64,000 bases of DNA from Candidatus Omnitrophota bacterium (GTDB lineage: Bacteria; Omnitrophota; Gorgyraeia; 2-02-FULL-51-18): contig CAMDWQ010000010.1 in assembly GCA_945877765.1 (NCBI GenBank), positions 5,679 to 69,678 on the forward strand. The letters run 5' to 3'. The translations under genes and the position numbers were made by a program. The notes under the pieces are model-generated. The model ran no database searches. It was not told the origin of the DNA and was given only the letters and a program-made list of their open reading frames with translations. Positions 21,466 through 55,221 of the stretch are shown here, piece after piece (the stretch's first letter is position 1; each line of letters opens with the position of its first letter).

Positions 21466-22815
21466 ATGAAATCCAAAGAATCCGAAACGCTTGAATTCAA
21501 AACCTCCACCTCTGAGCTCAAAGAAGCTGTTATTTCCATTTCCGCTATGCTCAACAAGCACGGTAAGGGCGAGCTCTACTTTGGAATCAAGGATGATGGC
21601 AGTGTTCTTGGGCAGATGATCGGCAGAAATACGATAAAAGATATCACCGAAGCCATTTCTGCGCACATCGAGCCCAAGATTTTTCCGCAGGTGAAAACAA
21701 AGAAAATCCAAGGCAAAGACTGCATCAAAGTCGAGTTTCATGGGAATCATCGGCCCTATTTTGCTTATGGCCGTGCTTACATGAGAGTCGGTGAATCGGA
21801 TAAGCAATTAAGCATCCAGGAGATGGAGGATCAGTTTGTCCGGAAAAATAAGATTTTTTGGGAGGAAGAAATCTCGAAAAAAAAGCTTTCAGACGTGAGT
21901 GTCAAAACCGTCAGAGAGTACATGCAAAAAGCCAATGCAGCCAAGCGTATTAATTTTAAGTATACCAATGTCAAAACAACGTTAAGTAAACTGGACCTTC
22001 TCAATCGAGGTCGCTTGACCCGTGCCGCCGAGATTCTGTTTTGCAATGAAAATTCGATGGAAGTCCAAGCCGCCGTTTTTGCCACGAACGATAAGATCAC
22101 CTTTATCGACATCCAGAAGTTTAGTGGAAATCTCTTCAGCCTGCGCACTCAATCGGAAGAATACATCAAGAAACATATCATGTGGCGTGCAGACATGAGC
22201 GAGAGCCGCCGCAAGGAAATCCCTGAAATCCCTGTCAGGGCATTTTCCGAAGCCATCGGGAATTCGCTTTGCCACAGGGATTATTCCAATCCTAAAGGTA
22301 ATGAGATTGCAATCTTTAAAGACAGAATTGAGATTTACAATCCAGGAAAGTTCCCTGAAGAAATTCACCTAGAAGATTTTTTTAAGGGCAAAGGACGCTC
22401 TATTCTACGCAATCCCCTGATTGCCGAAACCATGTACAAGTCCGAAGATATCGAAAAATGGGCAAGCGGGTTAAAACGAATTTACGATGAATGCCAAACC
22501 GCCGGGATACGAGTGGAGTTTGAATCAATCAGTACAGGATTTCTTCTGACTTTTCATCGGCCTAAGTGGGAACAGGGTGGCCAGAACAGGTTGGTAGAAG
22601 GGTTGGTAGATAGGTTGGTAGAAAAGTTGGCAGAAAACCAGAAGAAAATCATCAATCTGATAAAAAAGAATTCTTCTGTTTCCAAGAAAGAACTGTCGAA
22701 TAAAATTGGCATCAGCACCACCGCCATTGACAAAAATATCGATCAATTAAAGAAAAAAGGTTTACTCAGCCGGGTTGGCCCTGACAAAGGCGGTCATTGG
22801 GAGCTTTTGAAATGA
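21466..22815 (+). CDS. AlbA_2 / Schlafen-like divergent-AAA ATP-binding protein with a C-terminal winged-HTH (RecG-C-terminal-like putative regulator)
   Basis: 449 aa; N-terminal ETLEFKTS...ELYFGIKDDGSVLG; C-terminal triple repeat VEGLVDRLVEKL plus an HTH. Confidence 0.6.
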   Translation: MKSKESETLEFKTSTSELKEAVISISAMLNKHGKGELYFGIKDDGSVLGQMIGRNTIKDITEAISAHIEPKIFPQVKTKKIQGKDCIKVEFHGNHRPYFAYGRAYMRVGESDKQLSIQEMEDQFVRKNKIFWEEEISKKKLSDVSVKTVREYMQKANAAKRINFKYTNVKTTLSKLDLLNRGRLTRAAEILFCNENSMEVQAAVFATNDKITFIDIQKFSGNLFSLRTQSEEYIKKHIMWRADMSESRRKEIPEIPVRAFSEAIGNSLCHRDYSNPKGNEIAIFKDRIEIYNPGKFPEEIHLEDFFKGKGRSILRNPLIAETMYKSEDIEKWASGLKRIYDECQTAGIRVEFESISTGFLLTFHRPKWEQGGQNRLVEGLVDRLVEKLAENQKKIINLIKKNSSVSKKELSNKIGISTTAIDKNIDQLKKKGLLSRVGPDKGGHWELLK

Positions 22816-37861: not shown

Positions 37862-38647
37862 ATGAAAAAAACCTTACTTCGATTGATCGGCATCTTTTTT
37901 TTGGCCGCGGTGCTTCTGGTGGTGGGCAAGGACATGATTGCCAAGTCTGTCATTGCAAATATTTTTCAGAAGACGACAGGCTTGAGGCTGGGTATCGGCA
38001 ATTTTCACTCGAGTCTTCTTAAGTCGGTGATCAGCGTTAATGATTTGAATCTTTATAATCCAGCTGCCTATTCCGAAAAAGTGATGTTCTCTATTCCTGA
38101 GGCGCGGGTAGGTTTTGACCTCGGCTCTATTTTGACAGGCAAGCCACATCTAAAGGAAATCTACGTCCATTTGGCTGAGCTTAAGATTGAGCGCAATAAA
38201 GCAGGCAAGCTTAATCTTTCGGAGCTAAAGCCTCCCGGTGGTAAAAAGAAAGCGCCGAGAGCGGGAAGCACCGCCACAGTCAGTGTTGACGTAATGAGGC
38301 TACGCGTCGATAAGGTGATTTATAAAGATTTCTCGCGGGCGACTCCGTCGGTTCAGGAGTTTGCTCTCAATATCGACGAAACTTATCGTGATGTCAAAGA
38401 TGTCAAGGCGCTGGTTCCCATCATCATCGGCAGCGCGCTAAAAAGTAGTGCACTGCGCTCTCTAATCAATTTTAATGTGAGCGATCTTCTGTATAATTTT
38501 GAAGCTGGCGGTATTAACATCCGTGATTTGGGCCTTGATCAACTCTCCAATATTTTTAACTCCGGCGTTGGCCAGACGGCTCAGAGTGTCTTGGGTAGTA
38601 TTTCGGGTCAGTTAGACTCGTTGTTTGACTCTTCCCAAAAAAAATAA
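37862..38647 (+). CDS. Hypothetical membrane-anchored protein (N-terminal transmembrane segment; weakly AsmA-N-terminal-like)
   Basis: 261 aa; N-terminal hydrophobic anchor; no confident family assignment. Confidence 0.45.
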   Translation: MKKTLLRLIGIFFLAAVLLVVGKDMIAKSVIANIFQKTTGLRLGIGNFHSSLLKSVISVNDLNLYNPAAYSEKVMFSIPEARVGFDLGSILTGKPHLKEIYVHLAELKIERNKAGKLNLSELKPPGGKKKAPRAGSTATVSVDVMRLRVDKVIYKDFSRATPSVQEFALNIDETYRDVKDVKALVPIIIGSALKSSALRSLINFNVSDLLYNFEAGGINIRDLGLDQLSNIFNSGVGQTAQSVLGSISGQLDSLFDSSQKK

Positions 38648-38961: not shown

Positions 38962-41900
38962 ATGCGCCGCTCGCCTTATTTAAAAATTATTTCGTTAGCT
39001 CTGATCATTAGCTTTTCCTTCTCCAACCTCCTCTATGCCGCCGACCCACGGGATCTCTTAAACGCCGCCAAAGCAGGCTTTGCCCTAGAAGACCAACGGC
39101 GTACCGGCGGGGAAGCGCCCCTAAATAATCAATCGCAAGGCTATGCCCAAGGATTGGTTGATCAGAAAAACAACCTAGCAGACCTAGAGCAATTAAACTT
39201 TTCTTTAACGACACAAAACGGAGATATTCTTAAGTATGCAGGCGATAAGCTAGCCCAGATCCAGCGGCCCGATGGAACGATTCTTCAAAATATTGTTTTA
39301 GCCGCGGACGGCAAAATCCAGAATGCGGATTTAAAACTCTTTGACGGTTCGATTCAGGTTTTTCAAAATGGCCAAGTCATAGGCTATGAGACTCCCGATG
39401 GAACCCAAGTCTTTTATGCCAACAGCCAGATACAAAAAACCATTTCTAAGAGTGGTGTTGAAACCCTCTACGCCTACACCAAAGACGCCAATGGGAAGGT
39501 CCTTGAGACTATCCTTGAGAACTCTCAAGCTAAAACCATCTATGATGCCCAAGGCAAATTAAAGGAAGTGTATCAGAAAGGACTATCTCAGCGGATGGTC
39601 TATCAGGCAGGAATTCTTCAAAGCATCACTCTGCAAGATGGCTCTCAAGCCCTTTTCCAAGCACAGACCATCAATAGCCAAGTCAAAGTTACGTTTAAGT
39701 CATATGTGGATGCGAATGGCAACACGTATGTGAATGATATGCAGTATCTTCTGAAAGATGGCTCTTCGCTAAAAAATATTATCTGGGGTAGTGATGGAAA
39801 AGTGGTTAATGCCTTACTCGAAAGCATCGACGGCAGCACCTACACTTTTACTAACAAGGTAATTACCGCCATTAGGCTTCCCAGCAATTGGGTACTCTCT
39901 TCCATCACCTGGGATACTCAAGACAAATTAAAAGACGGGATTCTTACGGATTTGGCTAATAACCAGTGGACCTATCAAGCGGGGGCACTGGTATCAATCA
40001 AGCTTCTGGACGGATCTATTCTATCGAGCATCACCTGGGATGCCCAAAATAAGATCAAAACTGCTAATTTAATAGACGCGCAAAAAAAGGAATACACTTT
40101 TGCCAATAATCAGCTCTCACAGCCTCTCAATGCGATCGCCTTTCAGCTTGATACCCAATACGGCCTTGTTGCCGGCAATAGCACCTACCAGTTCAACTGG
40201 GCGGGCAAGAATGAAAAATGGTTTAAGGCCAACAATAATACTTGGTATTTTATTCTCCCTGATGGCAAGGTGTATCTTTGGAATTCCGTTGCGGGTAAGA
40301 ACCTCACCACCTCCACGCTTGTAGTGACGCTAAACAGCAGTTATTGGGAAGATCCGGCATTTCTCTGTGATGCCTCCGATAGGGCAATAGTTCTCCAGCT
40401 TGATACTCAATATAGCCTTGTTCCCGGAAGCAGCACCTACCAATTCAACTGGGCCGGTCAGAATGAAAAGTGGTTTAAGGCCAACAACAATACCTGGTAC
40501 TATATTCTTCCCACAGGTCAATTGTATCTTTGGGATGCCAAGGGTGGTAAGAATCTCACCACCTCGACACTGGCAGCCACCCTCAACAGCCATTTTTGGG
40601 AAGACCCCACAAAGGTCCATCTTGCTTTTGAGAGAGCTGCTCTAGAAAGCACCGCGCTAAATCTAGATCGCCAGTACGCTCTTATTCCCAGTAGTAGTAA
40701 TTATTTCTTAAATTGGGCCGGTCAACAGGAAAAATGGTTTAAGAGTAGTAGCGGTACTGCCCAGTATTTTATACTCTCCGACGGAAGCTTGTATCTATGG
40801 AATCAACCCGCCGGAAAAAACCTCGCTACCTCCACAAAGCTTGCCACCCTCAGCGCTGATTACTGGGCAAATCCGACACTTCTTTGCCGCGCCTATGACC
40901 GCACAGTCGCAGTAGTCGTCACAAGCGCCTACACCGCAAAGATTATAGGTATCACCAAACCGCAAATTTCCGTGTCCAAAAGAACGCTCAGCGCGTCGAA
41001 ATTAAACATCGCTACTCTGAGCGCCGCTTTTTCGTTTAATTCAATTTTGTATAACACGGATGGAAGTTTTGCTCAGATCCTAGAAAAGGACAACACGACG
41101 CTTAATTTCAAAAATAATCTTTTGGTGGATGCCAAAGACGCGCAGGGAAAAATCATCCATTTTGATTTCACGGAGAGTGCTTTTGGAAATCTTTTAGGTT
41201 CAAGCCTCACGCAGAGCGGCGCGACATCCACCTATGATGAACAGGGAAATCTTTCCTCGGTAAAAGTGGGTGATACGACGATTCATTACAGCGCGGAAAA
41301 TAAAATCGAGTCCGTTGAGAAGGCGGACGGGACACGAGTGGAGAATATTATTTTTGATGCGCAAGGGAATATTCATGATGCCAAGATGACCGCGCCCGAT
41401 GGGACTCAGAGGACCTATCAGGCCAAAAAAATGATTCGTGAAAAAAAAGCTGATGGCACGGAGACTGATTTTGTGGACGGCAAGCCTTCGGTGACGCGGA
41501 TGGCGGACGGGCGGGTGTATGTCTATTCGCCGGCGGCTATTATCGGGAACTCTGCCGCTTTTAGGAGTATTTTGACGCAGTACGTCTCTGACGATGGAAG
41601 CGCTGTCTATGTCAATGACGGCATTCCCTTTAAAATCCAGACTAAGTCGGGCATGGTGTTGACAAATCTTGTGTTCGCGCTAGACGGTACTCTGACGGAT
41701 GCGATCGGATCTTTTACTGGGCCCGATGAAAATCAGATGACTTTAACCTATCAAGGTAAGGAAGTCAGGCAAATCATTTCCGCTGACGGCTCACGTCTAT
41801 TTTATGAAAATAATCGGCTTAAAAGCATGACCAAGCCCAATGGCGAGCAGATTATCTACGAATACACCCTCGATGGTGATGGGGAGATCTTGAAGATTAT

Positions 41901-44900
41901 TCTTAAAGACGCCTCTGGTACGCGGATTTATAATCCTGCTTTTGGAAAATCGTCCGAGCTTGTGGATGATGATTTGGTGAATCAGGACGGGGGAGAAGTC
42001 GATTTGGGACGCGCACTTCCTGCGATGGACCTATTGAGTTATTTCAAGGCGATCGAAAATACGACTACCCATTTGCCGGAAAGTCATGTGGGTATCAATG
42101 ACCCGCTGACTATTTCTTATACCTACGATGTGGCGCTGTATCTTTTGGCGGGAGCGTCTAGTGGCGGAGCTATTTTAGATTACATTATCAGTAACCCGGA
42201 AAAAATGATTAATACGACGTACGTCCCATCTGGCGGCATGTATAGCGATCTATCGACGTTGGGCGGTCAGGCGGGATTTGATCGAAACAGTGTGGTGGCG
42301 GGACCCAACGCGTGGATTGGTTTGGCTGCCTTGAAGCAATATCAAAAAACACAGGACGTAAAATATCTCAATTTTGCCAAAGCCCGAGCGGCCTTCATCA
42401 AGACGCTCTCGGATCCGTCAGGCGGTATCGTCATGGGGCCTGCAGGTCAATGGGGGATTCCCCCCTTCTCAGATCTTAAGTCCACGGAAAATAATCTATC
42501 CGCCCTCTATTTATACCAAGCGCTCTATACAGCGACCAATGACGCGCAATATCTTGCCGCGGCGGATAGTCTCTGGGCCTACGTAAAGACTCTTTATGAC
42601 CCGACCTTACACGCTTTTAGCCGCGGGGAACACAAGGGCGGCGGGGAGTGGCTTAAAGACAGTGCCAATGTTTTTGCCACGGACGTTTTGGCGTGGATGC
42701 CGTTTGAGCGCGTGGTGAATGATTCATTTTTTGGAGCGGATGTATTAGCCCGGCTAAAAGAAGTCGAGAATATGATTCGTGCCGCGGAGAAATACACGGG
42801 TCTTTTTACTCCGGTCGGTGATATTCAGGGTTTTAGTTATTCACCTGAGAGTAAAGATCGCAGTGTGATTTCCATTGAGTGGTCTGCTCAGATGGCCAAT
42901 CTTTATCTAAAAATTGCCCGCAGTTATAAGCAACTAGGAAATGACGTCAAATACCGTTTTTATGGATCTCGCTATCAAAAGTTGACCGCCTCGCTTGAGA
43001 CATTCGTCAAGACAGATGCTTCGGGTGTGAGTAGGGCTCCTTATGCTGTGTATCAAAATGGAAAAGGCGCTTACGGCGAGTTTACAGGGCATGGTTGGGC
43101 AACCCCTTCTCCCAAAAATCAAAATGGGGATGTTTTTAGCATGGCGAGTATCTATTATCAATTTTCACGTCAAAAAACAGATCCCTTGACCCTCGCCAAT
43201 GGATCCATCCTCTCGGCTAATTACATCAGCCAGGCCGATATTGATAAATATTCGGGCACGAGTTTACGCGATCAAAAATATTTTGACGCCGTGACCTCGC
43301 TTGAGCGCTATGAAAATGAAAAGTTTACGGCGGTATATTCCAAGGGCACTCTACGGAGTATCCAATATGAGAATATTTTGATCAACAATCCTGTGATTGA
43401 TGCCCGTGGATTTTTGGTGTCGGCAGAAATTCACACCCCTGATGGCCAGGTGTACACACTCAAAGATAGAAAATTGGCAACCCTCCTAAGGGCTAATGGG
43501 ACGCTTTTGGGTTATGAAGGAGACCTTATCGTGGATGTAACAGCGCCCAATGGAAAAAAAGTCCATTACACGTACACCAAAAATGCCCAAGGGTATGTGA
43601 CCGGCATCGCTGTGGAATACAACACCGGAAATGGGTGGATCGGTAAACCGATAGCGGAGTACTTATTTGATCCTGCCAACACCGAAGAAAAACCGATTCA
43701 TCAAACGAATTATCACTTGGCCGGTGATGACTACCGACAAGGTTCTGTTGGATCCTCAACAATTGGTAGCGGAGAATCGGAGTGGTTTGGTTCGGCGCAG
43801 GGACTGGACCCATTAGATCCCGAGGCCCGTCTTGTTTTTGATTCCAGCACGCTGGAGGGGACCGGTGACAGGAATTTTATAGATATTCAAGCGTATCGCT
43901 ACGATCTTGAATGGCCGGACAATATGCTTTCCGTCCAAAATGACAGTTTTGTATTTTTGAGAGCAAAAGAAACAAATTCTTCTACCGATGTTCATTTATC
44001 TCCCTATTGGATGACCGCGTCAGGATTATTGCTTTGGGTGCCGCTTCAAAATGGGTTTGATATCCCTCTCACTGATCAATATCAAAATCATCTGATTTCA
44101 ATCCAACCGGATGCGCTGGTTGTGGGTAGAAAAACATTTAACCTCCGCCTGGTTTTCGCGACGCCCATGCCCGCAGCCGCCCCATGGAAAATTTCTATCG
44201 CGGAGATGGATTATTTTCAATTAAAGCACATTGAGCCCGAGGATTACTTGCAGTACTTAAATCTTTCCCAAGAGCAGATGCTGGACGTTTCTAGGAAACC
44301 TTTAAAAAATGACGCCATGGATCTCCTTGAAGGGTCTCAGATCGTATCCAATTTTAATCATCAAAAGGAAGCCGAAAAGTTTTTGATCGCCATGGATCTT
44401 GACGCCAACTACAACTATTTATCCGGGACACGTGTGGATAAAAGTGTGGAGCGATATGCGGGCGGTAAGGTGGCAAGCCTGCTCAAGAATGGCTCTGAAG
44501 AGACCTACGAGTACGATGTCAACGGGCAGATCCAAAAAGTCATCAATAAAGACGCCGCGACTCAAGCGGTAAAGACAGTCACGTATTATCAATACGGACG
44601 CATCCGGCGGGTCGAGGACGCATCTGCGAAAGCGCTTTATACCTACAGCTACCAGACGGATTCTGCCAACAATGAAATTACACTCGTCAAAGATGAGGCA
44701 ACGGGGGAGCTAAAGCATTATCAAGGTAGTCGGCTCACGCAGATGGACAATGCCGACGGCACGCGAACGCTTTATTTTTATGAAAATACGGATGAGAGGA
44801 TTTCTCGCTCGCAGATCATGAGCGGTCAGAGTATCCTTGCAAAGTTTTCCTATTCCTATGAGGGCGCCAACACGCTTGTTACTGACGCTGATGGCGCCAC

Positions 44901-47900
44901 GAAAGTCTATGACGCCAACAACCTGCTTCTATCGATCATCACTCAAGGAGGTTTGGAATACCGGTTTAATCATTTAAAAGATGAGGCGGGCAATGCCGTG
45001 GAGGAGCAATTTTTGTATTCGGCCAAAACTGAGGATGGAATGACGCTCTTTTATAAAAATGACACCGTGGACAAAATTCAGCTAAAAGACGGGACCGTGA
45101 TTAATGTTTCCGAGGCGGATCAGGATTTGTATCAAAAAGTACTGATTAAGCAAGGCCTCGTGGACCAGGTGATTCATAAGACCGGGGAGCTTGCCGTTTA
45201 TATCCGTAATAATCGCGGGGATTTGAAAGAAGTCCGTGTCAGTAAAGCTGGGCAGGAGTACCGCTACACGCCCGATGGCCGTCTCGTAAGCCGCACAGAT
45301 GTTGGCGGCGTCACTTATCATTATGGATATATTTTGGATGGGGCTGGAAATATATCCAAGACGCGCGTGGTAAAGCGTACGGCAAAATTAATTGGGGGCG
45401 ATCTGCCAACAGTGGATCCGAATACCGGTGATTTTCTGAGACTGAGTGTTTTGTCTGCCGGGATTGTGGATGGGTGGAACGCAGGTCTATTTGCCAATGA
45501 CGAAGGTGTGGGGCATTTTGATACCAATTTCTGGCGGAATTCGTCGGATCAATGGACAGGCCGTGGGTATGACGTCGCCGTTGTCGATGCCAAAGGCAAA
45601 CTTATTAAGTCCGATCTTTTCGATATCTGGCAGCTTGGGGGCTCAGAAGCCGACCGGATGGCACAGTTTATTGAGCAAGTCCCTGTGGGAAATTATGTCC
45701 TCATGGCGGTCGGTGATGAAGGCGCTCTCAACATGACCGAGCGCGCTTACAAAGCCCTTGAGTCGCTGGGAAGCGCTCAGATACGAAATCTAAAGTTCAG
45801 GGGATCGTGGGGTCTTATTGGTAGAAAAGGTGCCGCTATTGGCACAGCCATCGAAGGTCTCCGAGATAGCCAAAAAGGCTACGTCTCTTTGCAAAATTAT
45901 GATACCGAGTATAGCTATTTTGATAAAAAGGGTGTTCCGATACCCTACGACCAATTCACCGCCGTTATTTCTCAAAATTGGAACAGTAGCTACCAGAGTT
46001 ATGTGGGGGATGCGGGGGAAATTCTTAAGACATCGGTCTATAGTGATGAATATGCTATCGCCTATCACAAAAATTATAATGAGCTCTATCCTGACTCCGG
46101 TTTTATTCAACTTTGGAATGACCGTTACCTTAATCAATTTACAGTCAATGAGTATGCCCAGGGAATCATAGATAAGGTTTCAACTACGGCTACCGCCAAA
46201 TATGTCTATTACGATAGCCGCTACCCGTTTAATTATGTCCACCCGCTTTTTGCAGTCGCTCTAAAAAATATTCTGGCGGCCAATGGCTTTCGGGTGATTG
46301 ATGCCAACCAGCTTGCGGAAGTCATGAAATTAGAAGGTTCTCACGCGGTGATTGTCTCGGCGCACGATGTGATGCCGGATACCATCTATGACCCCAATTC
46401 TATTTTTTCTATTTCTTATCGAAAGCTTTCGCGTACTTTTATGGAGAATGGCGGCACGCTCGTGTGGATGGGGGATCTGCCTTTTTATTACACGGGACAC
46501 GCGGACGGCAGTAAGACCATTGTCGGTGAGATCGGAGCGAAGACAGTTTTGGGGGTGATGCCTCTGGCGCGCGGCCTTCGTGCTCCGGTGAGTAGGACCT
46601 ATGTGCAAACTTTTGATGAATGGACGTTTATTAGCGGATGGATTCACGGAAATGGCGCGACGATTCAAAACGGGACTCTCCGACTGACTTCCCAATTGCC
46701 ATCAATAGTAGGCTCGGCAAGCGACCAAAACTTCAAGCCATCAACCGGGCTTTTGCGGTATACGGTTGATTTTAAAAATAATACGCTCAACTCAGGCTTT
46801 GAAACTTATCTAGAATTTCAAAATTTTACCCCTTATCAGACTCTGGGGATTCGCCAGGAAAACGGTGTGTTTAAATTTATAGGAAAGACTCCAGTGACCG
46901 GCGGATCGTCAGTGATTACCAATTTGGGCCAAGCTGCTTATGTTGCCGGCGTGGAATACACAGTGATTTTTGAAACCGAAAACAATGTCCTTAAAGTATT
47001 TTTATATCAAAAAAATCAGCCACAGCCCGAGGTGCCTACATTTTCAATCGCTAATGTGGACCCAAGCGTTGGGGCGAGTATTGGATTTAATATTCAGCAG
47101 GGTGAGGCGTTGGTCACAAGTCTTAAAAGAGATGAGAGGGAATACGAGATTATTTCTACGCAAGCGCCAAGCATTACTCCCGATTTTAGTTTGAAGGGCG
47201 GCGAGGCGGCGTTGGATACCTCCTTGCTTTATTTCGATACCAATGTCAATTTCCGGACGGTGCGTTGGGACAAGATTCAGGAATCGATTGGCTATTCGCT
47301 TGATAGCGATACGGCCGTGGTGTCCGATTACGATAAAAATGGTGATCTTATTTCCATTGCCAAGGCGGATCGCACGGTGACCACGTATGAAAACCAAAAA
47401 GTGCAGTTGGTGACGGACATCAACGGGTATGTTCTTGTGGAGTACGCTTACGATGCACAGGGTGCTTTGACTTCCATTACCAATGTCGGCCAAAGAAGAG
47501 AGCTCGCCGATCACATTGAGGACGCCAAAGACCGGGCCAATTTTGAGAAGCTATTTCTTTTTGAAGATGTTGCCATTGAGCATAATCTTACCGCTGGAGA
47601 GCCCATTGCTAAAAGTGCTCGCATCAGGTCGTTGGCGCACAGCGCCAATGTTCTCGACGGCGGACCTGAACCAGGAAGGTCATCGATGGGCATTGTTGCC
47701 GATGAGCTCATCAGTGAGCACGCAGAAAAATATCGCCAAGAGAATCCAAAGACGCTCGAGGGGGAAGTAGGAACAGACCCTTTCTGGATACAGGTTGCCG
47801 ATGGGTACTTGGCATACTCCAGCGCGAGACTGGAAGCGCTAAAAGTTTTACGTAGTACTCAAGATATCAAAGCCAAGAGCAGGGACGCCAAGAAAGAAAA

Positions 47901-50900
47901 GTCCAAGGCTCTTGACCGGGTGCGGGACATTATCCGAGATATCGACAACAGGGAAAATGAATATCACCAGACGGTGCTTCAAGCGATTTTCAATTTCAGC
48001 GCCGCTGTGCTCCAGCAGAAAAAAAATGAAATTGAGGCCGATTATCAAAAGGCATTTGATGCGCTCGCAGTGCAGACGAGCAATTTTGAAAAAGAAATCC
48101 AGAAAGAAGAGTCCAAGCCCGTCATCTCCGATTATTACCGCTCTATCTTAGGTCGCGATGCCACCAGCGCTGAGATTGAATCCTATTATCCGCAAATTGC
48201 ACAAAATGGAAAAATCAACGCCGCGGCTTTGGGCGTCAACTTGCGAAATTCAGCTGAGTTTATCCAAAGAACCAGTCGCGTTGGTAAGATTCGCGGGGAT
48301 GTCGAAGCGGCGCTGGATGAATATGTTTCTGCAGACACAGGCAAAAAAGCTACCCTTCTTGCCTCGCTAGGTCTTACTCCCTCCGAAGTCGTTAACCTCT
48401 CCGCGCAAGACATTCAAAAAATAAAAGATTACCTTCGTTCTCAAGCCCTGCATTTTGGCGAATCCGCTATCGAATCTTTGATGGCGCTGATCAAGTCCAG
48501 GGGGATTTCTCCCAACCGCGACGAATTGGCCGCCAAGCTCATTCTCATTGATATCTTCGCGGGCATCATTCACCCCTATTTGAAAGAAGGGGAGGAAATG
48601 CTCCTGTCGGCTTATTCGCTTCAGAAAGTCGCCGCTTTTTACGGGGTGGAAGCACAGACACTAAATCTTACCTATGAAGACATGCTCGCCATTTTTTCTG
48701 CAGGAACATCCTCTGCACGAGCGATTTTACACACAGAAGGTATTCATTATTCGGTGCTTACCGCGATCACCGCTGACCAAGTGACTATCCTTGAATACAA
48801 CGGTGATTCCCGCACCATGTCCAAGGCCGATTTTCTAAAATCGTGGAAGGGGGTAGCCCTTGTTGAAAAATCTACCGCCGCCCCCGTTCTCACCGGCCCC
48901 CAGAAATCAGCCACCGCACGTGTATTAAATTCAGATGAAGCCCGACAGATCAAGGGTGGATTCTTTATGTTTATCCCTTTTATCTTCACGATGCTTGCGC
49001 ATATAGCCGCGACCATCGGCGCCATCATTGCTAGCATCGGTACGATTATTGCCCAGATTGGCATCATGGTCGGCCAGATCCTACAGGGTTTGGGCGGCCT
49101 TCTATACCAGTTCGCCCAAGGCGTCGGCGCCGTTGTCAAAGGTCTCTGGACCGGCATCAAATTTGTCGGCATGAAAATTTTCACAGGCTTCGCCAAATTT
49201 TTCGGCCCGACCCTCGCCAAAGCCGCCGCCGGTGAGGCACTAAAGGTTACTGTTGGCCAGACCATTCTCAACAATGTCATCCGAATGGGTGTTAGCTACG
49301 TCGTCTCCAAAGGCCTCGACGCGCTGGGCGTGGACCCTATTGTCACGAGCATCATCTCAACGTTTGTGACAGGCGGGATGCACGGAGGATTTACCTCGCA
49401 AGGCTTCAATTTCGGCTTCAGCCTAGCCGACGGCCTCAAAGCAGGTCTCCAGTTAGGCGCCAAAACATTCCTCCAAGCCGCCGGGCTTGACCCCCAGCTT
49501 TCGGGAATCTTATCGATGACGACAGGCCCCTTGGTGAATGGGGTGTGGACGGGGAATGTGGGGGGAGAGTTATTTAAGATTGCGCCGGAGCTTACAACCA
49601 GCTTAGCTCAATACGGGATAGACAAACTCGGAAAATCGCTGGGGTTGGATCCGAGGCTGACAGGATTGATTTCAGCGCCAATCTCATTGGCGATAGGGAA
49701 AAATTTCCAGACTGGGAATATCTTCGGCCAAGATGTCATTAAGGCCGTCCAAGATGGCATTTTCCGAGGAGCTATCGCGTACGGCGTCGACTTTGCCGCC
49801 AATAGAATTACCGACAACAAGCTTCTTCAAGCCTTAAGCTCACGGCTTATCTCTGGAGCCATTGAAGGAACATTCCTTCAAAAAGATCTCTTTGCGGGAG
49901 TCGTTGGCGCCCTAAAGCAATCCGTTGTCGGCATTTTTGGAGCTAACCAAAGCGATGTTCTCGGCAATATTGTAAACTTCTCAACATTGGTGGCACAAAA
50001 TGGTTTTAAGAACGCCGCAGAGCTCTATTTGACCAATATCTTCAACAAACAGAGTATTGAAGCCATCTATCGCTTGGGCGGTATCGCAAGCGCTCTAGCG
50101 TCTCCTAAAACTCAAGTCACTCTCCCCGACGGAAGAGTTGCCTATCAGACAGTCACCTCCTCGGGAGAAGCGATAATCTTTGACGCCATGAACAACCTGC
50201 TCGGCTTTCAGAGAAACGGTCTTTATCAGATAGGAGGGTTTGGTATCACCAGCGCCGGATCCTTTGGGCTTATCAGTGGAAAATCTTTTGGAATGATCGC
50301 CGGCGGCTCATCATTTGAAGCCTCCATCCAAAATGGAAAAGTGACACAAATCACAACCTACACCGACCAAGTCCGCCTGGATATAGATTTGGGTGAAGGA
50401 ACGGATGGCATTCGTTTTGATTCCGACGGAAACCTGACCGATGGAAGGATGACGTTGGATGAGAGGATAGATTTTACGGTAGTCAATGGCACTGTTTACG
50501 GGATTGAGCTAGATAAAGAAAATCCAAATACAACCTCCGTTAACGATGCGTATGCGTTTGCTGAGCGTATTATTAGTGCTGTGCTGGATGGCTCGGGGAG
50601 TTCGAGTTCTGGGTCTAGCGTGATTGACCAATTGCAAAAAGAGCTCATCACTTACTATCTATTTGGTAATGGATTTGAGAATGAAAGAAGGAAAGAAGAT
50701 ACCCTTGATCCGCTTTTGAAGTTTTATACAGATAATCTGGAATTCGATGATCCTAAAGTGATTACTGAGGGTCAAAAAATTGTGGTGGATCTCTATGAAT
50801 TTACCAAAGTCGCCGGAAACGGTTTGGATTGGCTAGGGGATTTCAATCCCGTATTTTTAGTTTTGTTGTTAGGCGTGTTAGGCCTGACCTACGTCGCCGC

Positions 50901-51681
50901 CGATAGAATCATCCAAAAGGTGATCAACAACGAATCTCTGGATTCATCCGCCTCGGACGGAGAAAAATCTTTTTATCAAAAAGTACAAGATTACCTAAGA
51001 AAATTTAGCGAACAGACAGGTCTTGGCAATAATCTCGTACTTGAAACCATCAGACAAATGGAAGCATTGCAAGCCAAAAAAGGAAAGCTAAAAGATGCTA
51101 TCGCATTCGTTCACTCAGGGGCCACAGCCCCCGTTTTAAGTGCCATCGAGCAAATGCAATATGATGTAGAAACAGTGCTTATCTATGAAGGGCCCCACCC
51201 AAACTACACCGCACAATTTACAAATCCAAGCTTAAAGCGTATTATTCATGTCATGGGGTCGAGCCACGGCCTATTAGACAGCTCGCTCGAGGGAGACGCG
51301 CCTGTGCCGTTTTTGGGATGGGCAAACTTTAAAAACCCAGCCAACGTTGATTTTAAAAACATCAATATTGAAATTGAGGGTGCCTGGCACAGCGATTATG
51401 CCTATAACGCAGAGGAATGGGATAAAAAAATCGCTGCTGTTACAGGAAGCACCCCAACCGCGGTTGAGGCTGATCGAAATCGCATCAGAGCACTAAAGGA
51501 AAGAAATAGAAAAGTGAATTTATTCATGAGGGATTTGTATCAGGCGGCCTACAAAGATCAGACAAATCAAGGGCTCTTGGACGATTTTTTTGAAGATCTA
51601 AAAACAAAAGGCGCAGCCAATCTAGAGAGTGGCATCTGGAAAATTGATCCCACAAAATTAAGAGATGTGACCCCCCAATGA
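38962..51681 (+). CDS. Giant secreted multidomain protein (4239 aa) with YD/RHS-type repeats, a triplicated 83-aa module, a FAM3/ILEI-like domain, a DUF4214-like motif, an inactive C39-like peptidase fold, a Gly/Ala-rich hydrophobic region and a C-terminal GxSxG domain
   Basis: Uninterrupted ORF with ribosome-binding site and signal peptide MRRSPYLKIISLALIISFSFSNLLYAADP; many Y.YD..G repeats; the domain evidence is given in the findings. Confidence 0.85.
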   Translation: MRRSPYLKIISLALIISFSFSNLLYAADPRDLLNAAKAGFALEDQRRTGGEAPLNNQSQGYAQGLVDQKNNLADLEQLNFSLTTQNGDILKYAGDKLAQIQRPDGTILQNIVLAADGKIQNADLKLFDGSIQVFQNGQVIGYETPDGTQVFYANSQIQKTISKSGVETLYAYTKDANGKVLETILENSQAKTIYDAQGKLKEVYQKGLSQRMVYQAGILQSITLQDGSQALFQAQTINSQVKVTFKSYVDANGNTYVNDMQYLLKDGSSLKNIIWGSDGKVVNALLESIDGSTYTFTNKVITAIRLPSNWVLSSITWDTQDKLKDGILTDLANNQWTYQAGALVSIKLLDGSILSSITWDAQNKIKTANLIDAQKKEYTFANNQLSQPLNAIAFQLDTQYGLVAGNSTYQFNWAGKNEKWFKANNNTWYFILPDGKVYLWNSVAGKNLTTSTLVVTLNSSYWEDPAFLCDASDRAIVLQLDTQYSLVPGSSTYQFNWAGQNEKWFKANNNTWYYILPTGQLYLWDAKGGKNLTTSTLAATLNSHFWEDPTKVHLAFERAALESTALNLDRQYALIPSSSNYFLNWAGQQEKWFKSSSGTAQYFILSDGSLYLWNQPAGKNLATSTKLATLSADYWANPTLLCRAYDRTVAVVVTSAYTAKIIGITKPQISVSKRTLSASKLNIATLSAAFSFNSILYNTDGSFAQILEKDNTTLNFKNNLLVDAKDAQGKIIHFDFTESAFGNLLGSSLTQSGATSTYDEQGNLSSVKVGDTTIHYSAENKIESVEKADGTRVENIIFDAQGNIHDAKMTAPDGTQRTYQAKKMIREKKADGTETDFVDGKPSVTRMADGRVYVYSPAAIIGNSAAFRSILTQYVSDDGSAVYVNDGIPFKIQTKSGMVLTNLVFALDGTLTDAIGSFTGPDENQMTLTYQGKEVRQIISADGSRLFYENNRLKSMTKPNGEQIIYEYTLDGDGEILKIILKDASGTRIYNPAFGKSSELVDDDLVNQDGGEVDLGRALPAMDLLSYFKAIENTTTHLPESHVGINDPLTISYTYDVALYLLAGASSGGAILDYIISNPEKMINTTYVPSGGMYSDLSTLGGQAGFDRNSVVAGPNAWIGLAALKQYQKTQDVKYLNFAKARAAFIKTLSDPSGGIVMGPAGQWGIPPFSDLKSTENNLSALYLYQALYTATNDAQYLAAADSLWAYVKTLYDPTLHAFSRGEHKGGGEWLKDSANVFATDVLAWMPFERVVNDSFFGADVLARLKEVENMIRAAEKYTGLFTPVGDIQGFSYSPESKDRSVISIEWSAQMANLYLKIARSYKQLGNDVKYRFYGSRYQKLTASLETFVKTDASGVSRAPYAVYQNGKGAYGEFTGHGWATPSPKNQNGDVFSMASIYYQFSRQKTDPLTLANGSILSANYISQADIDKYSGTSLRDQKYFDAVTSLERYENEKFTAVYSKGTLRSIQYENILINNPVIDARGFLVSAEIHTPDGQVYTLKDRKLATLLRANGTLLGYEGDLIVDVTAPNGKKVHYTYTKNAQGYVTGIAVEYNTGNGWIGKPIAEYLFDPANTEEKPIHQTNYHLAGDDYRQGSVGSSTIGSGESEWFGSAQGLDPLDPEARLVFDSSTLEGTGDRNFIDIQAYRYDLEWPDNMLSVQNDSFVFLRAKETNSSTDVHLSPYWMTASGLLLWVPLQNGFDIPLTDQYQNHLISIQPDALVVGRKTFNLRLVFATPMPAAAPWKISIAEMDYFQLKHIEPEDYLQYLNLSQEQMLDVSRKPLKNDAMDLLEGSQIVSNFNHQKEAEKFLIAMDLDANYNYLSGTRVDKSVERYAGGKVASLLKNGSEETYEYDVNGQIQKVINKDAATQAVKTVTYYQYGRIRRVEDASAKALYTYSYQTDSANNEITLVKDEATGELKHYQGSRLTQMDNADGTRTLYFYENTDERISRSQIMSGQSILAKFSYSYEGANTLVTDADGATKVYDANNLLLSIITQGGLEYRFNHLKDEAGNAVEEQFLYSAKTEDGMTLFYKNDTVDKIQLKDGTVINVSEADQDLYQKVLIKQGLVDQVIHKTGELAVYIRNNRGDLKEVRVSKAGQEYRYTPDGRLVSRTDVGGVTYHYGYILDGAGNISKTRVVKRTAKLIGGDLPTVDPNTGDFLRLSVLSAGIVDGWNAGLFANDEGVGHFDTNFWRNSSDQWTGRGYDVAVVDAKGKLIKSDLFDIWQLGGSEADRMAQFIEQVPVGNYVLMAVGDEGALNMTERAYKALESLGSAQIRNLKFRGSWGLIGRKGAAIGTAIEGLRDSQKGYVSLQNYDTEYSYFDKKGVPIPYDQFTAVISQNWNSSYQSYVGDAGEILKTSVYSDEYAIAYHKNYNELYPDSGFIQLWNDRYLNQFTVNEYAQGIIDKVSTTATAKYVYYDSRYPFNYVHPLFAVALKNILAANGFRVIDANQLAEVMKLEGSHAVIVSAHDVMPDTIYDPNSIFSISYRKLSRTFMENGGTLVWMGDLPFYYTGHADGSKTIVGEIGAKTVLGVMPLARGLRAPVSRTYVQTFDEWTFISGWIHGNGATIQNGTLRLTSQLPSIVGSASDQNFKPSTGLLRYTVDFKNNTLNSGFETYLEFQNFTPYQTLGIRQENGVFKFIGKTPVTGGSSVITNLGQAAYVAGVEYTVIFETENNVLKVFLYQKNQPQPEVPTFSIANVDPSVGASIGFNIQQGEALVTSLKRDEREYEIISTQAPSITPDFSLKGGEAALDTSLLYFDTNVNFRTVRWDKIQESIGYSLDSDTAVVSDYDKNGDLISIAKADRTVTTYENQKVQLVTDINGYVLVEYAYDAQGALTSITNVGQRRELADHIEDAKDRANFEKLFLFEDVAIEHNLTAGEPIAKSARIRSLAHSANVLDGGPEPGRSSMGIVADELISEHAEKYRQENPKTLEGEVGTDPFWIQVADGYLAYSSARLEALKVLRSTQDIKAKSRDAKKEKSKALDRVRDIIRDIDNRENEYHQTVLQAIFNFSAAVLQQKKNEIEADYQKAFDALAVQTSNFEKEIQKEESKPVISDYYRSILGRDATSAEIESYYPQIAQNGKINAAALGVNLRNSAEFIQRTSRVGKIRGDVEAALDEYVSADTGKKATLLASLGLTPSEVVNLSAQDIQKIKDYLRSQALHFGESAIESLMALIKSRGISPNRDELAAKLILIDIFAGIIHPYLKEGEEMLLSAYSLQKVAAFYGVEAQTLNLTYEDMLAIFSAGTSSARAILHTEGIHYSVLTAITADQVTILEYNGDSRTMSKADFLKSWKGVALVEKSTAAPVLTGPQKSATARVLNSDEARQIKGGFFMFIPFIFTMLAHIAATIGAIIASIGTIIAQIGIMVGQILQGLGGLLYQFAQGVGAVVKGLWTGIKFVGMKIFTGFAKFFGPTLAKAAAGEALKVTVGQTILNNVIRMGVSYVVSKGLDALGVDPIVTSIISTFVTGGMHGGFTSQGFNFGFSLADGLKAGLQLGAKTFLQAAGLDPQLSGILSMTTGPLVNGVWTGNVGGELFKIAPELTTSLAQYGIDKLGKSLGLDPRLTGLISAPISLAIGKNFQTGNIFGQDVIKAVQDGIFRGAIAYGVDFAANRITDNKLLQALSSRLISGAIEGTFLQKDLFAGVVGALKQSVVGIFGANQSDVLGNIVNFSTLVAQNGFKNAAELYLTNIFNKQSIEAIYRLGGIASALASPKTQVTLPDGRVAYQTVTSSGEAIIFDAMNNLLGFQRNGLYQIGGFGITSAGSFGLISGKSFGMIAGGSSFEASIQNGKVTQITTYTDQVRLDIDLGEGTDGIRFDSDGNLTDGRMTLDERIDFTVVNGTVYGIELDKENPNTTSVNDAYAFAERIISAVLDGSGSSSSGSSVIDQLQKELITYYLFGNGFENERRKEDTLDPLLKFYTDNLEFDDPKVITEGQKIVVDLYEFTKVAGNGLDWLGDFNPVFLVLLLGVLGLTYVAADRIIQKVINNESLDSSASDGEKSFYQKVQDYLRKFSEQTGLGNNLVLETIRQMEALQAKKGKLKDAIAFVHSGATAPVLSAIEQMQYDVETVLIYEGPHPNYTAQFTNPSLKRIIHVMGSSHGLLDSSLEGDAPVPFLGWANFKNPANVDFKNINIEIEGAWHSDYAYNAEEWDKKIAAVTGSTPTAVEADRNRIRALKERNRKVNLFMRDLYQAAYKDQTNQGLLDDFFEDLKTKGAANLESGIWKIDPTKLRDVTPQ

Positions 51682-52175
51682 AAAATAAAGCTATTTTAAT
51701 ACTCGCAGGATCGCTACTCACTCTAATTTTGCTATTTATTTATTTTACAAACTCAAGAGCGACATATTCCAAGATAGCTGTTCGCTCAATCGATGAAAAT
51801 AAAATTTACGTTGGCGATGAAAAGCCAGGACTAGAATCAGCATCGGATGAGGCTAGTAGCTTTGCTAAGACTGTAGAGGGGCTTAACGAAGGTTGGGATA
51901 ATATTGGAACAGGAGAATCTTATTATAGAGCAGGGCAATATGAGGAGGCTGTAAAAGCTTATAAAAAAGCATACGATGTCGATCCTGGAAACAGGACTCT
52001 CTCAGGCAACAAATTGATCAACGTTTACGAAAAGCTCTCCCGATACGACGAAGCCATCGCCCTAGTAGATGAAATCTTAAAAACCCAACCACTTGTTGAA
52101 TATGGCATAGCGAAGTTCACCGCCATCCGCACTCGCCTCCTCGCCGCCAAAGTCCAATCTGCCAAAGCTGAATGA
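51678..52175 (+). CDS. Small membrane-anchored TPR-like protein, translationally coupled to the giant gene
   Basis: 165 aa; ATGA stop/start overlap; N-terminal transmembrane segment; helical repeats YYRAGQYEEAVKAYKKAYDVDP. Confidence 0.6.
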   Translation: MKNKAILILAGSLLTLILLFIYFTNSRATYSKIAVRSIDENKIYVGDEKPGLESASDEASSFAKTVEGLNEGWDNIGTGESYYRAGQYEEAVKAYKKAYDVDPGNRTLSGNKLINVYEKLSRYDEAIALVDEILKTQPLVEYGIAKFTAIRTRLLAAKVQSAKAE

Positions 52176-52355: not shown

Positions 52356-54437
52356 TTGACTGAAGAAATAGTTCCCATCGTATCACCCTCCGAAAGAAAA
52401 ACCCGCGCCACTAGTTACGAGTTGTCAATTAAGACTTTCTTAGAGGATCTCCAATTTAAAGATGTGGATGGGGCAAGAGATTCATTTTTAATAGGCGAAA
52501 ATCAGGTTGATGTTTGCGGAGGTCATGAGGATACACTCCTGATCATAGAATGCACGATGAAGCAAGCATTGGGGAAAAAATTGCTAATTGCCAAGATTGC
52601 GGAGTTAAGAGGAAAAAGGGATGTATTCCAAAAAGGCTTTAGAAAAAGCGAGAAGTATGGGCATTACAAAAATTTTAAATATATTCTTTCGGTGCGTAAT
52701 ATTCCGGTGCGTCGAGAAGATATTGATTATGCGAACAAAGACGAATGCAGAATTTATATATGGGATGATAACTGTATTGATTATTACAAGGATCTATATT
52801 CCAAAATCGGCGAATATGCCAAGTATGAACTTTTGGGTGAAATAGGGATTAGGCCGGCAAGTGGAAACACTGTTAGTATCCCAGCGGCTTGCACAAATAT
52901 TGCTGGATCTGATGTCTATTTATTTTTTGCAGACCCACGAACGTTACTCGAAGTTTCATGTGTCGCAAGACGTGAAAAGGGGCAAGAACGATACTATCAA
53001 AGGATCATAAACAAAAAAAAGCTTAAACAAATTGCTTCATATGTTGAGACTGGGAATATCTTACCCAATAACATCATAATAGGCATTAGTGAGCAATCCC
53101 GAAAATATTTAAAATTTACACCATGGCAAACCAAGCTTGATTACAAGCAACAATTATTGCAGTATGGTGTTAAATATGGAATTTTAGAATTTCCGAAAGA
53201 TTATCGTAGTTGCTGGATAATAGATGGACAGCATCGTCTCTACTCTTTTATAAACACAAAAAAACCTATTTATTTGCCTGTTGTTGCTTTTCATGATCTT
53301 AGCATGGAGAGACAATGCAAATTATTTTTAGACATCAATAAAAACCAGAAGCCTGTTCCTCCAGATTTAGTTTGGGATCTTAACGGTGACATGATTCCTT
53401 CCGAACCTGACGGCATTATTTCAAGCGTTGTCAAAAGTCTTAACGAAATGGAGCCGTTAGCTAGAAGAATCCACATTCCATCAAAGGGAATGCAAACATC
53501 TCACGGCTATTTAAAAATGTCGGGAATTTGTTTGAGTTTAAAAAGAACAAAATTAGGGACCCATGTTACGTATAGCAAGACTGAAAATCCATTTTGGAAT
53601 AAAAACCCCGATGAGACGGTTCGCCAACTCTCCAAAGCACTTTCAATATACTTTATTGTCATAAAAGATATTCTCAGAAAGGATTGGGAAAGGGGGGATA
53701 AGGGCTTGGCTCTTTCTAACGGGTCCAACTCGATATTAATTAGAATTTTTGAGAGAATTGTTTCCAACTGTGTGCTTAAAAAGAACGCTGTCAAAGCATC
53801 GGATTATGAAAAATATTTAAAGCCTCTTGGTAAATATTTAAACGAAAAAACGGATGAAGATTATAAAAAGATTCGTTTGATGGCCTCCAGCGAGGGCGGA
53901 AAAGATAACCTTTTGAGGGATTTTGTTTTATACATTCGAAAAGAAACAAATGACTGGCAATTTGGTGGAAATATAGATGCATCGGGATCCTCTGAAATAA
54001 AGTCTCTTGAAAAAAGATTTAAGGATTTGTTTGAATTAAAATTTAAAGAAGATAGGGCAGAGGATGTTCTTTCAAAGGATCTTTATGGCAAGGCATCAAA
54101 ATATCTTTCAACGCACGGCCTATCAAAACGTGATATTTATCGACAATTAACTTTTGGTGAGTGTGTTCGTGTTTTAAGGGAGAAAAAGGACATATTTTAT
54201 CCTAGTTTTGTTGGGTCTAATTGTGAATTTCATGCCGAAATTGATTTTGAGTCAGCATTAGGGCATATCACTAGGCACAGGAACAGCCAACTTTCACACG
54301 ATATTGGTGCGGCTGCTCGGGATACGGACGATCCGTTATTTAAAATTTACATTGATAAAATAAATAAATGTATAAATGGTATTTTGGGGGAAAGCGAAAA
54401 CGATGAGGAGGCAGAGGACGATAGTGATGAATTATAA
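52356..54437 (+). CDS. DGQHR-domain protein (DndB-like / ParB-nuclease superfamily) with an extra N-terminal nuclease-like region and long C-terminal region; TTG start
   Basis: Literal motif CWIIDGQHRLYSF at nt 53212-53250; ribosome-binding site GAGGA 6 nt upstream; acidic C-terminal tail. Confidence 0.7.
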   Translation: MTEEIVPIVSPSERKTRATSYELSIKTFLEDLQFKDVDGARDSFLIGENQVDVCGGHEDTLLIIECTMKQALGKKLLIAKIAELRGKRDVFQKGFRKSEKYGHYKNFKYILSVRNIPVRREDIDYANKDECRIYIWDDNCIDYYKDLYSKIGEYAKYELLGEIGIRPASGNTVSIPAACTNIAGSDVYLFFADPRTLLEVSCVARREKGQERYYQRIINKKKLKQIASYVETGNILPNNIIIGISEQSRKYLKFTPWQTKLDYKQQLLQYGVKYGILEFPKDYRSCWIIDGQHRLYSFINTKKPIYLPVVAFHDLSMERQCKLFLDINKNQKPVPPDLVWDLNGDMIPSEPDGIISSVVKSLNEMEPLARRIHIPSKGMQTSHGYLKMSGICLSLKRTKLGTHVTYSKTENPFWNKNPDETVRQLSKALSIYFIVIKDILRKDWERGDKGLALSNGSNSILIRIFERIVSNCVLKKNAVKASDYEKYLKPLGKYLNEKTDEDYKKIRLMASSEGGKDNLLRDFVLYIRKETNDWQFGGNIDASGSSEIKSLEKRFKDLFELKFKEDRAEDVLSKDLYGKASKYLSTHGLSKRDIYRQLTFGECVRVLREKKDIFYPSFVGSNCEFHAEIDFESALGHITRHRNSQLSHDIGAAARDTDDPLFKIYIDKINKCINGILGESENDEEAEDDSDEL

Positions 54438-54453
54438 AAGCTGAGAAGAATTT

Positions 54454-55221
54454 TTGCGCTTAAATTTTGATGTATCGGTTGTCAGGGGTTTGAGAAGCGC
54501 CTCCCAAAGAGCGCGAGTTTTAACTGAGGACTGGGTTGATAAGCAAGTTTATTGCCCTAATTGCGGGCTTGTCGATATAGATAAATATCCAAATAATAAT
54601 CCCGCCGCCGATTTTCACTGCTCGAATTGCCATGAAGACTATGAGCTCAAAAGCAAAAACTCTAAAATTGGCACAAGAGTCGTCGACGGAGCCTACAAGA
54701 CATTGATTCAGAAGTTGCGGGGCAGTACCAATCCCAATCTATTTTTGTTAAATTACGATCCGCGAAGTCTTGAAGTTCAAAATTTTTTTGTGATTCCAAA
54801 GCACTTTTTTATTCCTGAAATTATTGAAAAGAGGAAACCGCTTGTACTCACCGCTCGCCGTGCCGGGTGGGTTGGTTGTAACATTCTTCTGCATGGCATC
54901 CCGCAAACGGGGAAAATTTATTTTGTAAAAAATCGTATTGTTGAGTCGAAATCAAAGGTACTTTCCTGTTGGAAAAAAACACTTTTTTTGAGAGAAGAAA
55001 AAGAGCTTGTCGCCAAAGGCTGGCTTTTGGATGTGATGCGCTGTGTCGAGCAGCTTAGCCAAAGTTTTTCACTTGATGAAGTTTATTCTTTCGCGGGAGA
55101 GCTCGGGATCAAACACCCTGGGAATCGACACATCAAGGATAAAATCCGTCAACAGTTGCAGGTTCTGCGTGAGAGAGGCTACCTCGAGTTTATCGGGCGA
55201 GGCCGTTACCGGCGCCCTTGA
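54454..55221 (+). CDS. DpnI-family methyl-directed (Gm6ATC) type IIM restriction endonuclease
   Basis: 255 aa; strong similarity as recalled to S. pneumoniae DpnI (QRARVLTEDWV..YCPNCG...ADFHCSNCHEDYELKSK...ARRAGWVGCNI...HIKDKIRQQLQVLRE...GRGRYR). Confidence 0.7.
   Translation: MRLNFDVSVVRGLRSASQRARVLTEDWVDKQVYCPNCGLVDIDKYPNNNPAADFHCSNCHEDYELKSKNSKIGTRVVDGAYKTLIQKLRGSTNPNLFLLNYDPRSLEVQNFFVIPKHFFIPEIIEKRKPLVLTARRAGWVGCNILLHGIPQTGKIYFVKNRIVESKSKVLSCWKKTLFLREEKELVAKGWLLDVMRCVEQLSQSFSLDEVYSFAGELGIKHPGNRHIKDKIRQQLQVLRERGYLEFIGRGRYRRP

Follow-up and report, generated by a model that had tools for sequence, protein, structure and literature searches.

A GG (ILEI/PANDER, FAM3-like) domain with a conserved predicted sugar-binding triad in a giant YD-repeat protein of an Omnitrophota bacterium

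The FAM3/ILEI fold is familiar mainly from cytokine-like human proteins and from dystroglycanopathy genes. FAM3 proteins are secreted as small, free molecules of one domain and have conserved disulfides; the GG domain is said to have been named by Guo et al. in 2011 after two well-conserved glycines. Members of the GG family have been found before in bacteria, in phages and in animals, and the domain described here is one more. It lies inside a 4239-residue protein of a Candidatus Omnitrophota bacterium (assembly GCA_945877765.1), encoded by a giant open reading frame (ORF) at 38962..51681 of the window, by which we mean the whole 64,000-nucleotide stretch analysed (contig CAMDWQ010000010.1, positions 5,679 to 69,678). 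All coordinates are those of the window, and every feature of the giant ORF lies on its forward (+) strand.

Several relatives of the domain have been characterized. In the POMGnT1 stem, Arg129, Asp179 and Arg207 make direct contacts to beta-linked N-acetylglucosamine (GlcNAc) (PMC9802357; PMC9437275), and resin assays in vitro showed FAM3C and FAM3A to bind GlcNAc as well as other sugars (PMC9802357). CEMIP/HYBID and TMEM2 hold their GG domain inside a large extracellular protein that acts on polysaccharide; HYBID and mouse TMEM2 no longer depolymerise hyaluronan when the GG domain is mutated, and Arg and Asp residues in it are needed for activity (PMC10276149). In the tail extension Tal of a streptococcal phage, the same fold forms the carbohydrate-binding module (CBM) CBM_1, with Arg and Asp conserved (PMC9437275). 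Within the phylum of our bacterium, an ILEI domain has been reported in the ‘Dockerin-type’ class of giant proteins (West-Roberts et al. 2023, bioRxiv 10.1101/2023.11.21.568195), and it has been proposed that large proteins of Omnitrophota with lectin-type domains act as adhesins or degrade the polysaccharide of prey surfaces (PMC10066038; bioRxiv 10.1101/2023.11.21.568195). Large Omnitrophota surface proteins are a setting already known to hold ILEI/GG domains.

A reading of this DNA made from the letters and predicted ORFs only (the sequence-only reading) had proposed a FAM3/ILEI-like, GG-type domain embedded in the giant protein at 45560–45835. The proposal was borne out: the flagged stretch is the core of a complete GG domain. 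Pfam ILEI (PF15711), scanned against the whole protein, matched residues 2201–2291 (45562..45834) with 84.3 bits (E = 8.4e-24), far above the gathering score of 27, and over profile positions 1–90 of 90. The proposed span is nearly equal to this Pfam envelope but is out of frame from its first base. The peptide that had been picked out (YDVAVVDAKGK...GLIGRKG) occurs exactly, as residues 2203–2290 (45568–45831), and all six of the motifs shared with FAM3 proteins (FD.W, FIE, VLMA..D.GA, LGS, FR..W and G.KG) are present, as FDIW, FIE, VLMAVGDEGA, LGS, FRGSW and GRKG. A phmmer search of PDB sequences with a 160-residue stretch returned FAM3B (E = 2e-14), FAM3C (6e-13), FAM3A (6e-11), the POMGnT1 stem (1e-8) and TMEM2 (1e-6), and no other PDB sequence in that search scored better than E = 0.75. 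With a profile made from seven homologous segments, the values rose in significance to 7e-22 for FAM3B and 2e-20 for POMGnT1. Gly2202 (in GRG) and Gly2270 (in LGS) were the only invariant columns of a diverse 52-sequence alignment, and were present in 240 and 243, respectively, of 243 GG instances. The domain belongs to the GG (ILEI/PANDER) family but, strictly taken, is no member of the FAM3 cytokine family: it lies inside a 4239-residue protein, and residues 2150–2321 contain no Cys.

The fold, in FAM3 proteins and the POMGnT1 stem a layered beta-beta-alpha globule of ∼150–170 residues, agrees with the sequence matches. An AlphaFold2 model of residues 2158–2315, made with a 12-sequence alignment, had a mean predicted local distance difference test score (pLDDT) of 93.3 and a predicted template modelling score (pTM) of 0.90. 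Foldseek against the PDB gave 21 significant matches (E 1e-10 to 1e-6, template modelling (TM) score 0.62–0.78), every one of them FAM3A, FAM3B, FAM3C, the POMGnT1 stem or TMEM2; the 22nd match had E = 0.6. Comparison with FAM3-family crystal structures, which the sequence-only reading had suggested as a check alongside the Pfam ILEI profile search, thus gave the expected match and no significant match outside the GG family. FAM3B/PANDER, FAM3C/ILEI and FAM3A (PDB 2yop, 5lc2/5lc3 and 7ecq) were the best matches overall (E = 2e-14, TM 0.73–0.77), alongside the POMGnT1 stem (PDB 5ggf/5ggj; TM 0.72–0.78, E 6e-9 to 1e-6) and the GG domain of TMEM2, which with CEMIP/HYBID belongs to the same family (PDB 8c6i; E = 1e-6 by sequence, 9e-7 by Foldseek). 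Chance resemblance or a low-complexity artefact is practically negligible as an explanation of E-values that run from 1e-24 to 1e-14 over independent searches by sequence, joined by a fold match with a clean gap to unrelated structures; we found nothing to support it.

The domain is larger than the stretch first flagged. The predicted fold needs N-terminal strands (LRLSVLSAG...), and tandem GG copies in other proteins repeat with a period of ∼155–160 residues, so the complete domain should measure ∼165 residues, about twice the flagged 88. We place it at residues ∼2150–2321 (45409..45924), from the envelope of a hidden Markov model of 390 GG instances, the AlphaFold2 model and the Foldseek matches. 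The giant protein has one GG copy.

Relatives of this domain were sought exhaustively among 1.84 billion cluster representatives (clusters at 50% identity). With the GG domain as query, 1127 clusters matched at E ≤ 1e-3 and 286 of these also at ≤ 1e-10; architectures were surveyed for the best 150 of the 1127. Recurrent in these 150 were gingipain-like C25 peptidases of ∼1900 residues, with two GG domains, CARDB and a C-terminus of the type IX secretion system (T9SS) type, and proteins with 5–6 tandem GG domains; a further protein joined six GG domains to an acyltransferase. The C25 peptidases and tandem-GG proteins are the closest relatives outside the giant proteins (38–44% identity) and are likewise secreted multidomain proteins, in uncultured bacteria of the Fibrobacteres–Chlorobi–Bacteroidetes (FCB) group. 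The C25 peptidases differ in their layout, which runs Propeptide_C25, GG, Peptidase_C25, CARDB, GG and T9SS-type C-terminal domain. They also lack a Trp/Asn-rich insertion of 14 residues, HFDTNFWRNSSDQW, which the alignment places at residues 2185–2198 (45514..45555), directly before the GRG arginine. Most giant-protein GG domains have this insertion; it was modelled with lower confidence here (block mean pLDDT 68).

One 10-residue pattern, taken from the 12-sequence alignment, was also used to scan 185,579 species-representative genomes, which sets a lower bound on occurrence. At least 137 GG copies were confirmed, in about ten phylum-level groups; the records were labelled Omnitrophota, ‘Planctomycetia’, Cytophagia/Bacteroidota, Ignavibacteriota, Calditrichota, KSB1, Zhuqueibacterota, Nitrospirales, Acidobacteriota and ‘Deferribacteres’. 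The best genome match was a fragment with 71% identity from Candidatus Omnitrophica CG07_land_8_20_14_0_80_50_8 (locus L001). In bacteria GG domains occur in a minority, nearly all of it from lineages without cultured members, yet they are not exotic. To that extent the sequence-only reading was right to call them uncommon in bacteria, while the 1127 clusters and the copies in representative genomes make the word too strong.

That vertebrate FAM3B and FAM3C gave the best PDB sequence matches might be taken to mean that the domain mimics a FAM3 cytokine of eukaryotes and was taken over from such a host to manipulate its signalling. We consider this very improbable. The closest relatives are not animal proteins but hundreds of environmental bacterial ones; the domain sits midway in the giant protein, lacks Cys and shows no sign of a release site; and the phylum, known from metagenomes of the groundwater and sediment type, is believed to live in association with other microbes (PMC10066038).

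The comparison with POMGnT1 bears most directly on function. BLASTP to the POMGnT1 stem (34% identity over 95 residues; the POMGnT1 sequence used was identical to PDB 5ggj) paired Arg2201 with Arg129, Asp2252 with Asp179 and Arg2280 with Arg207, so that the three GlcNAc-contact residues are common to both proteins. Their codons lie at 45562..45564 (Arg2201, in the GRG motif), 45715..45717 (Asp2252, in GDEG) and 45799..45801 (Arg2280, in FRGSW). This Arg-Asp-Arg triad is invariant in the alignment of giant-protein and C25-type GG domains, tandem-GG proteins have the same triad, and it is complete in 171 of 243 GG instances. POMGnT1 is alike, too, in that its stem is an accessory module of a larger multidomain protein. 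It differs in being a eukaryotic Golgi type-II membrane enzyme whose stem feeds a GT13 catalytic domain, whereas the partners in the giant protein are YD repeats, an alpha/beta region and a concanavalin-A-like (ConA-like) fold, and its GG domain has the extra Trp-rich 14-residue loop before GRG. In CEMIP/HYBID and TMEM2 the GG domain is accompanied by G8 and by PbH1 beta-helix repeats, neither of which a Pfam scan detected in the giant protein.

The giant protein belongs to a collinear family of its own, made up of YD-repeat proteins of about 2.8–5.6 thousand residues that appear to be anchored in the membrane through their C-terminal parts. The search of cluster representatives returned the protein itself and its collinear relatives P0026 (5610 residues), P0033 (4587), P0070 (3669), P0045 (3347; GenBank MBN2453704.1, Candidatus Omnitrophica), P0095, P0092, P0131 and P0012. 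Pfam ILEI matched in seven of seven collinear giant homologues. All the collinear relatives have the GG domain at the equivalent place, followed by the same region of ∼215 residues, and the two form a conserved cassette. In one ‘uncultured Planctomycetia’ metagenome-assembled genome (L010, 4580–16170) the GG-bearing homologue is a pair of adjacent ORFs of 2295 and 1513 residues, which could reflect a giant gene that has been split or frameshifted.

The region that completes the cassette, a conserved linker plus alpha/beta region (residues 2321–2535; 45925..46566), was delimited by BLASTP collinearity, invariant columns and the alternation of strands and helices in the model. It is kept, with many invariant polar residues, in all seven collinear giant homologues. 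We could not assign it to a family: it had no Pfam match in any of the seven homologues and no PDB profile match, and when the multi-domain model was compared by Foldseek, the top matches all fell to the GG and ConA-like domains. That model (AlphaFold2, residues 2140–2740, 601 residues) shows the GG domain, then the alpha/beta region, then a beta-sandwich. The last of these is a ConA-like lectin/glucanase jelly-roll domain (residues ∼2539–2729; 46576..47148), with local pLDDT mostly 69–89; its Foldseek matches were legume lectins, beta-glucanases of glycoside hydrolase family 16 (GH16), ERGIC-53 and a phage CBM, with E of ∼1e-8 to 1e-7.

We lean towards reading the GG domain as a lectin-like module by which a long surface protein would bind glycans, by analogy with its characterized relatives and in keeping with the adhesion or polysaccharide attack already proposed for large Omnitrophota proteins. 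The sugar-contact triad of POMGnT1 is kept, the GG domain and the ∼215 residues after it are conserved among the giant homologues, a ConA-like fold follows downstream and a weakly GH76-like region lies upstream; the GG fold is a CBM in phage adhesion devices, and Arg and Asp residues of the GG domain are needed in HYBID and mouse TMEM2. The closest functional analogy is to Tal CBM_1, which, like the T4 gp35 ‘kneecap’, places this fold in a long fibrous adhesion device. The phage modules of the GG/POMGnT1-stem-like type differ in being trimeric tail components and have only 9–21% identity to the giant-protein GG domain. In the function that we envisage, the pocket of Arg2201, Asp2252 and Arg2280 would hold a sugar of a cell-surface polysaccharide, as in the POMGnT1 stem. 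Together with the jelly-roll domain ∼220 residues downstream, the GG domain would then make up a glycan-recognition head on the long surface protein, which could serve for attachment to the envelope of another cell and possibly for its processing. The sequence-only reading had called the function of bacterial GG domains unknown, which is right only in part: the POMGnT1 stem, FAM3C and FAM3A of eukaryotes are established carbohydrate binders (PMC9802357).

Several points weigh against glycan binding. The full triad is missing from ∼30% of GG instances, its conservation might be structural, at least in part, and its residues were placed by sequence alignment. Overall confidence in the multi-domain model is low (pLDDT 69, pTM 0.42), and export and topology are read from hydrophobicity alone. 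We found no binding experiment on any bacterial GG domain in the literature, and in phage T4 the gp35 domain is part of a structural hinge and no receptor binder (T4 preprint).

This last case offers a different model, in which the GG domain would be a ligand-free rigid spacer or protein–protein joint between YD-repeat segments, much as gp35 joins the halves of the long tail fibre of T4. Matches in BFVD showed the GG fold in many phage tail-fibre and receptor-binding proteins, and these include many gp35 hinge connectors. The T4 preprint gives the ILEI/PANDER-like domain a structural place and assigns binding to a separate CBM-like domain; and in the giant protein the GG domain sits directly between YD-repeat stretches and the conserved downstream region. 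A spacer is a doubtful reading of the giant-protein domain all the same, though one that deserves to be kept in mind. A pure spacer would not need the POMGnT1-type triad, which is complete and invariant across the giant family, the adjoining ConA-like fold points to glycan recognition, and the arrays of 5–6 tandem GG domains in other proteins look like multivalent binders.

Alternatively, the GG domain could position a glycan or glycoprotein substrate for a catalytic domain of the same protein, as the POMGnT1 stem does for its own glycosyltransferase domain. GG domains are essential to the activity of HYBID and mouse TMEM2 (PMC10276149) and flank C25 peptidase domains in other bacteria. Two catalytic candidates can be named. 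One is the alpha/beta region at 2321–2535, which with its many invariant polar residues always follows GG in the giant family, but for which neither Pfam nor PDB sequence profiles nor Foldseek gave a catalytic family. The other lies upstream of the GG domain, in a helical region at residues ∼1020–1400, part of which (42307..42597) has a weak and tentative similarity to GH76 alpha-1,6-mannanases; the Pfam Glyco_hydro_76 match at residues ∼1116–1212 (E = 4e-4, 20.4 bits) is below the cut-off of 25.9, and PDB GH76 gave E of ∼0.04. We think such an accessory role unlikely. It would in any case still need sugar binding, and is hence a refinement of the lectin-like reading and does not contradict it.

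Tentatively, and with a good deal more doubt than attaches to glycan binding itself, the proposal can be carried further. The GG domain, the alpha/beta region and, in some members, the ConA-like domain might constitute an undescribed head for glycan recognition or processing that defines this YD-repeat family of Omnitrophota and related bacteria of the Planctomycetes–Verrucomicrobia–Chlamydiae (PVC) group. The family-specific Trp-rich loop might tune this head to an envelope polysaccharide of prey or host, and the whole might act as a contact organ for the epibiotic or predatory way of life that has been proposed for Omnitrophota. A corollary would be that bacterial surface lectins, not animal cytokines, are the ancestral use of the FAM3/POMGnT1 fold.

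Elsewhere the giant protein fits a large surface protein. The ATG of its gene is preceded at 7 nt by a ribosome-binding site (AAAGGAG), and the product begins with a probable Sec signal peptide (residues 1–27, MRRSPYLKIISLALIISFSFSNLLYA, followed by ADP; 38962..39042), judged by the hydrophobic residues 6–27 and the sequence itself. Its Pfam matches are ILEI, several RHS_repeat and Peptidase_C39. RHS_repeat (PF05593) matches in several blocks (E = 1.5e-18), and TIGR01643 (YD_repeat_2x) matches as well. Hydrophobic, probably membrane-spanning segments were found by Kyte–Doolittle hydrophobicity at residues 3330–3374 (one or more segments, window above 1.6; 48949..49083) and 3955–3984 (50824..50913). 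From these features we infer that the protein is exported, anchored in the membrane by its C-terminal part and displayed at the surface.

Between the two membrane-type segments lies a hydrophobic, Gly-rich region of ∼580 residues (3375–3950; 49084–50811; 13.5% Gly) with repeated ‘GLDP/GVDP’ motifs. Homologues P0070 and P0045 conserve the region, and a Pfam search of it gave no match. Directly N-terminal to the membrane segments is the C39-like domain (residues 3215–3304; 48604..48873; Pfam E = 5.9e-8), which covers profile positions 45–130 of 133, the C-terminal two thirds. The C-terminal block that includes this region can be aligned in the collinear homologues. Nearer the N-terminus, residues 385–660 (40114–40941) form three tandem Trp-rich repeats of ∼90 residues (LDTQY...NWAG.NEKWFK...WY.ILP.G.LYLW...), with only weak matches to choline-binding or cell-wall-binding repeats (E 0.001–0.03).

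Two familiar functions for proteins with such parts do not apply. Classical Rhs/YD-repeat polymorphic toxins have the YD/RHS repeats found here, in an Rhs core that closes with a PxxxxDPxGL cleavage motif and precedes a C-terminal toxin domain. In the giant protein the cleavage motif is missing, the shorter DPxG[LIVM] motif being absent throughout, and the C-terminus is hydrophobic and Gly-rich, with membrane segments. The only Cys of the 4239 residues are at 469 and 642. C39 peptidases, which process bacteriocins, have their catalytic Cys towards the N-terminus of the domain; the C39-like domain here has none and covers its profile in part, so it is not an active C39 cysteine peptidase; nor, lacking the DPxGL motif, is the protein a canonical Rhs toxin.

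The giant proteins described from Omnitrophota are of the same phylum and resemble this one in very large size, membrane segments, C39-like domains and lectin-type modules. The 12.7-kb ORF falls below the >20-kb threshold used by Seymour et al. 2023, and the protein is not of the ‘Dockerin-type’ class, which has dockerins in proteins of more than 10 thousand residues: it has 4239, with no dockerin match in Pfam up to E = 1. No SecA-like Pfam match was found in it either.

The window is ordinary chromosome, with genes for SecY, RpoA, GAPDH, PGK, ThiG, LeuB, Asd and TruA. Named relatives of its SecY at 72–82% identity are Candidatus Omnitrophica/Omnitrophota, with one exception labelled Candidatus Eisenbacteria. 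An Rfam scan found nothing in or near the giant gene. Directly upstream of it is an ORF of 261 residues (37862–38647) that matches the N-terminal part only of DUF748/AsmA models and may encode a short or truncated AsmA-like envelope protein. Downstream, the stop of the giant gene overlaps, as ATGA, the start of a gene for a small tetratricopeptide repeat (TPR) protein (51678–52175; 165 residues, with an N-terminal hydrophobic segment), which suggests translational coupling. Homologous loci differ in the gene at this downstream position: TPR here, HEAT-like in L002 and an unannotated 359-residue ORF in L003. Just beyond, at 52356–55221, a DndB-like (DNA-sulfur-modification-associated) gene is followed by one for a DpnI-type (methyl-directed) restriction enzyme; this pair may be a small defence island.

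Farther off, a cobalamin riboswitch (RF00174, 105.9 bits; 14368–14557, +) immediately precedes a TonB-dependent receptor gene (14583–16772, +), a classic btuB-type arrangement. The gene at 18868–20778 encodes a 636-residue protein with a PMT_2 (dolichyl-phosphate-mannose-protein mannosyltransferase-like) membrane domain and a long TPR array, and the one at 21466–22815, between housekeeping genes, encodes Schlafen AlbA_2, HATPase_c_4 and winged helix-turn-helix domains.

By itself, the observation of this domain is routine annotation, obtainable from a Pfam scan. Its use lies in what it offers for the study of Omnitrophota, an uncultured phylum suspected to live on other microbes, whose large surface proteins are mostly unannotated. 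The GG domain is small and confidently folded and has three predicted sugar-contact residues, which makes it a testable handle on these proteins. If it does bind a defined glycan, the ligand would point to the envelope of the partner or prey. The domain also strengthens the case for the FAM3/ILEI fold as a general lectin module in bacterial and phage adhesion devices.

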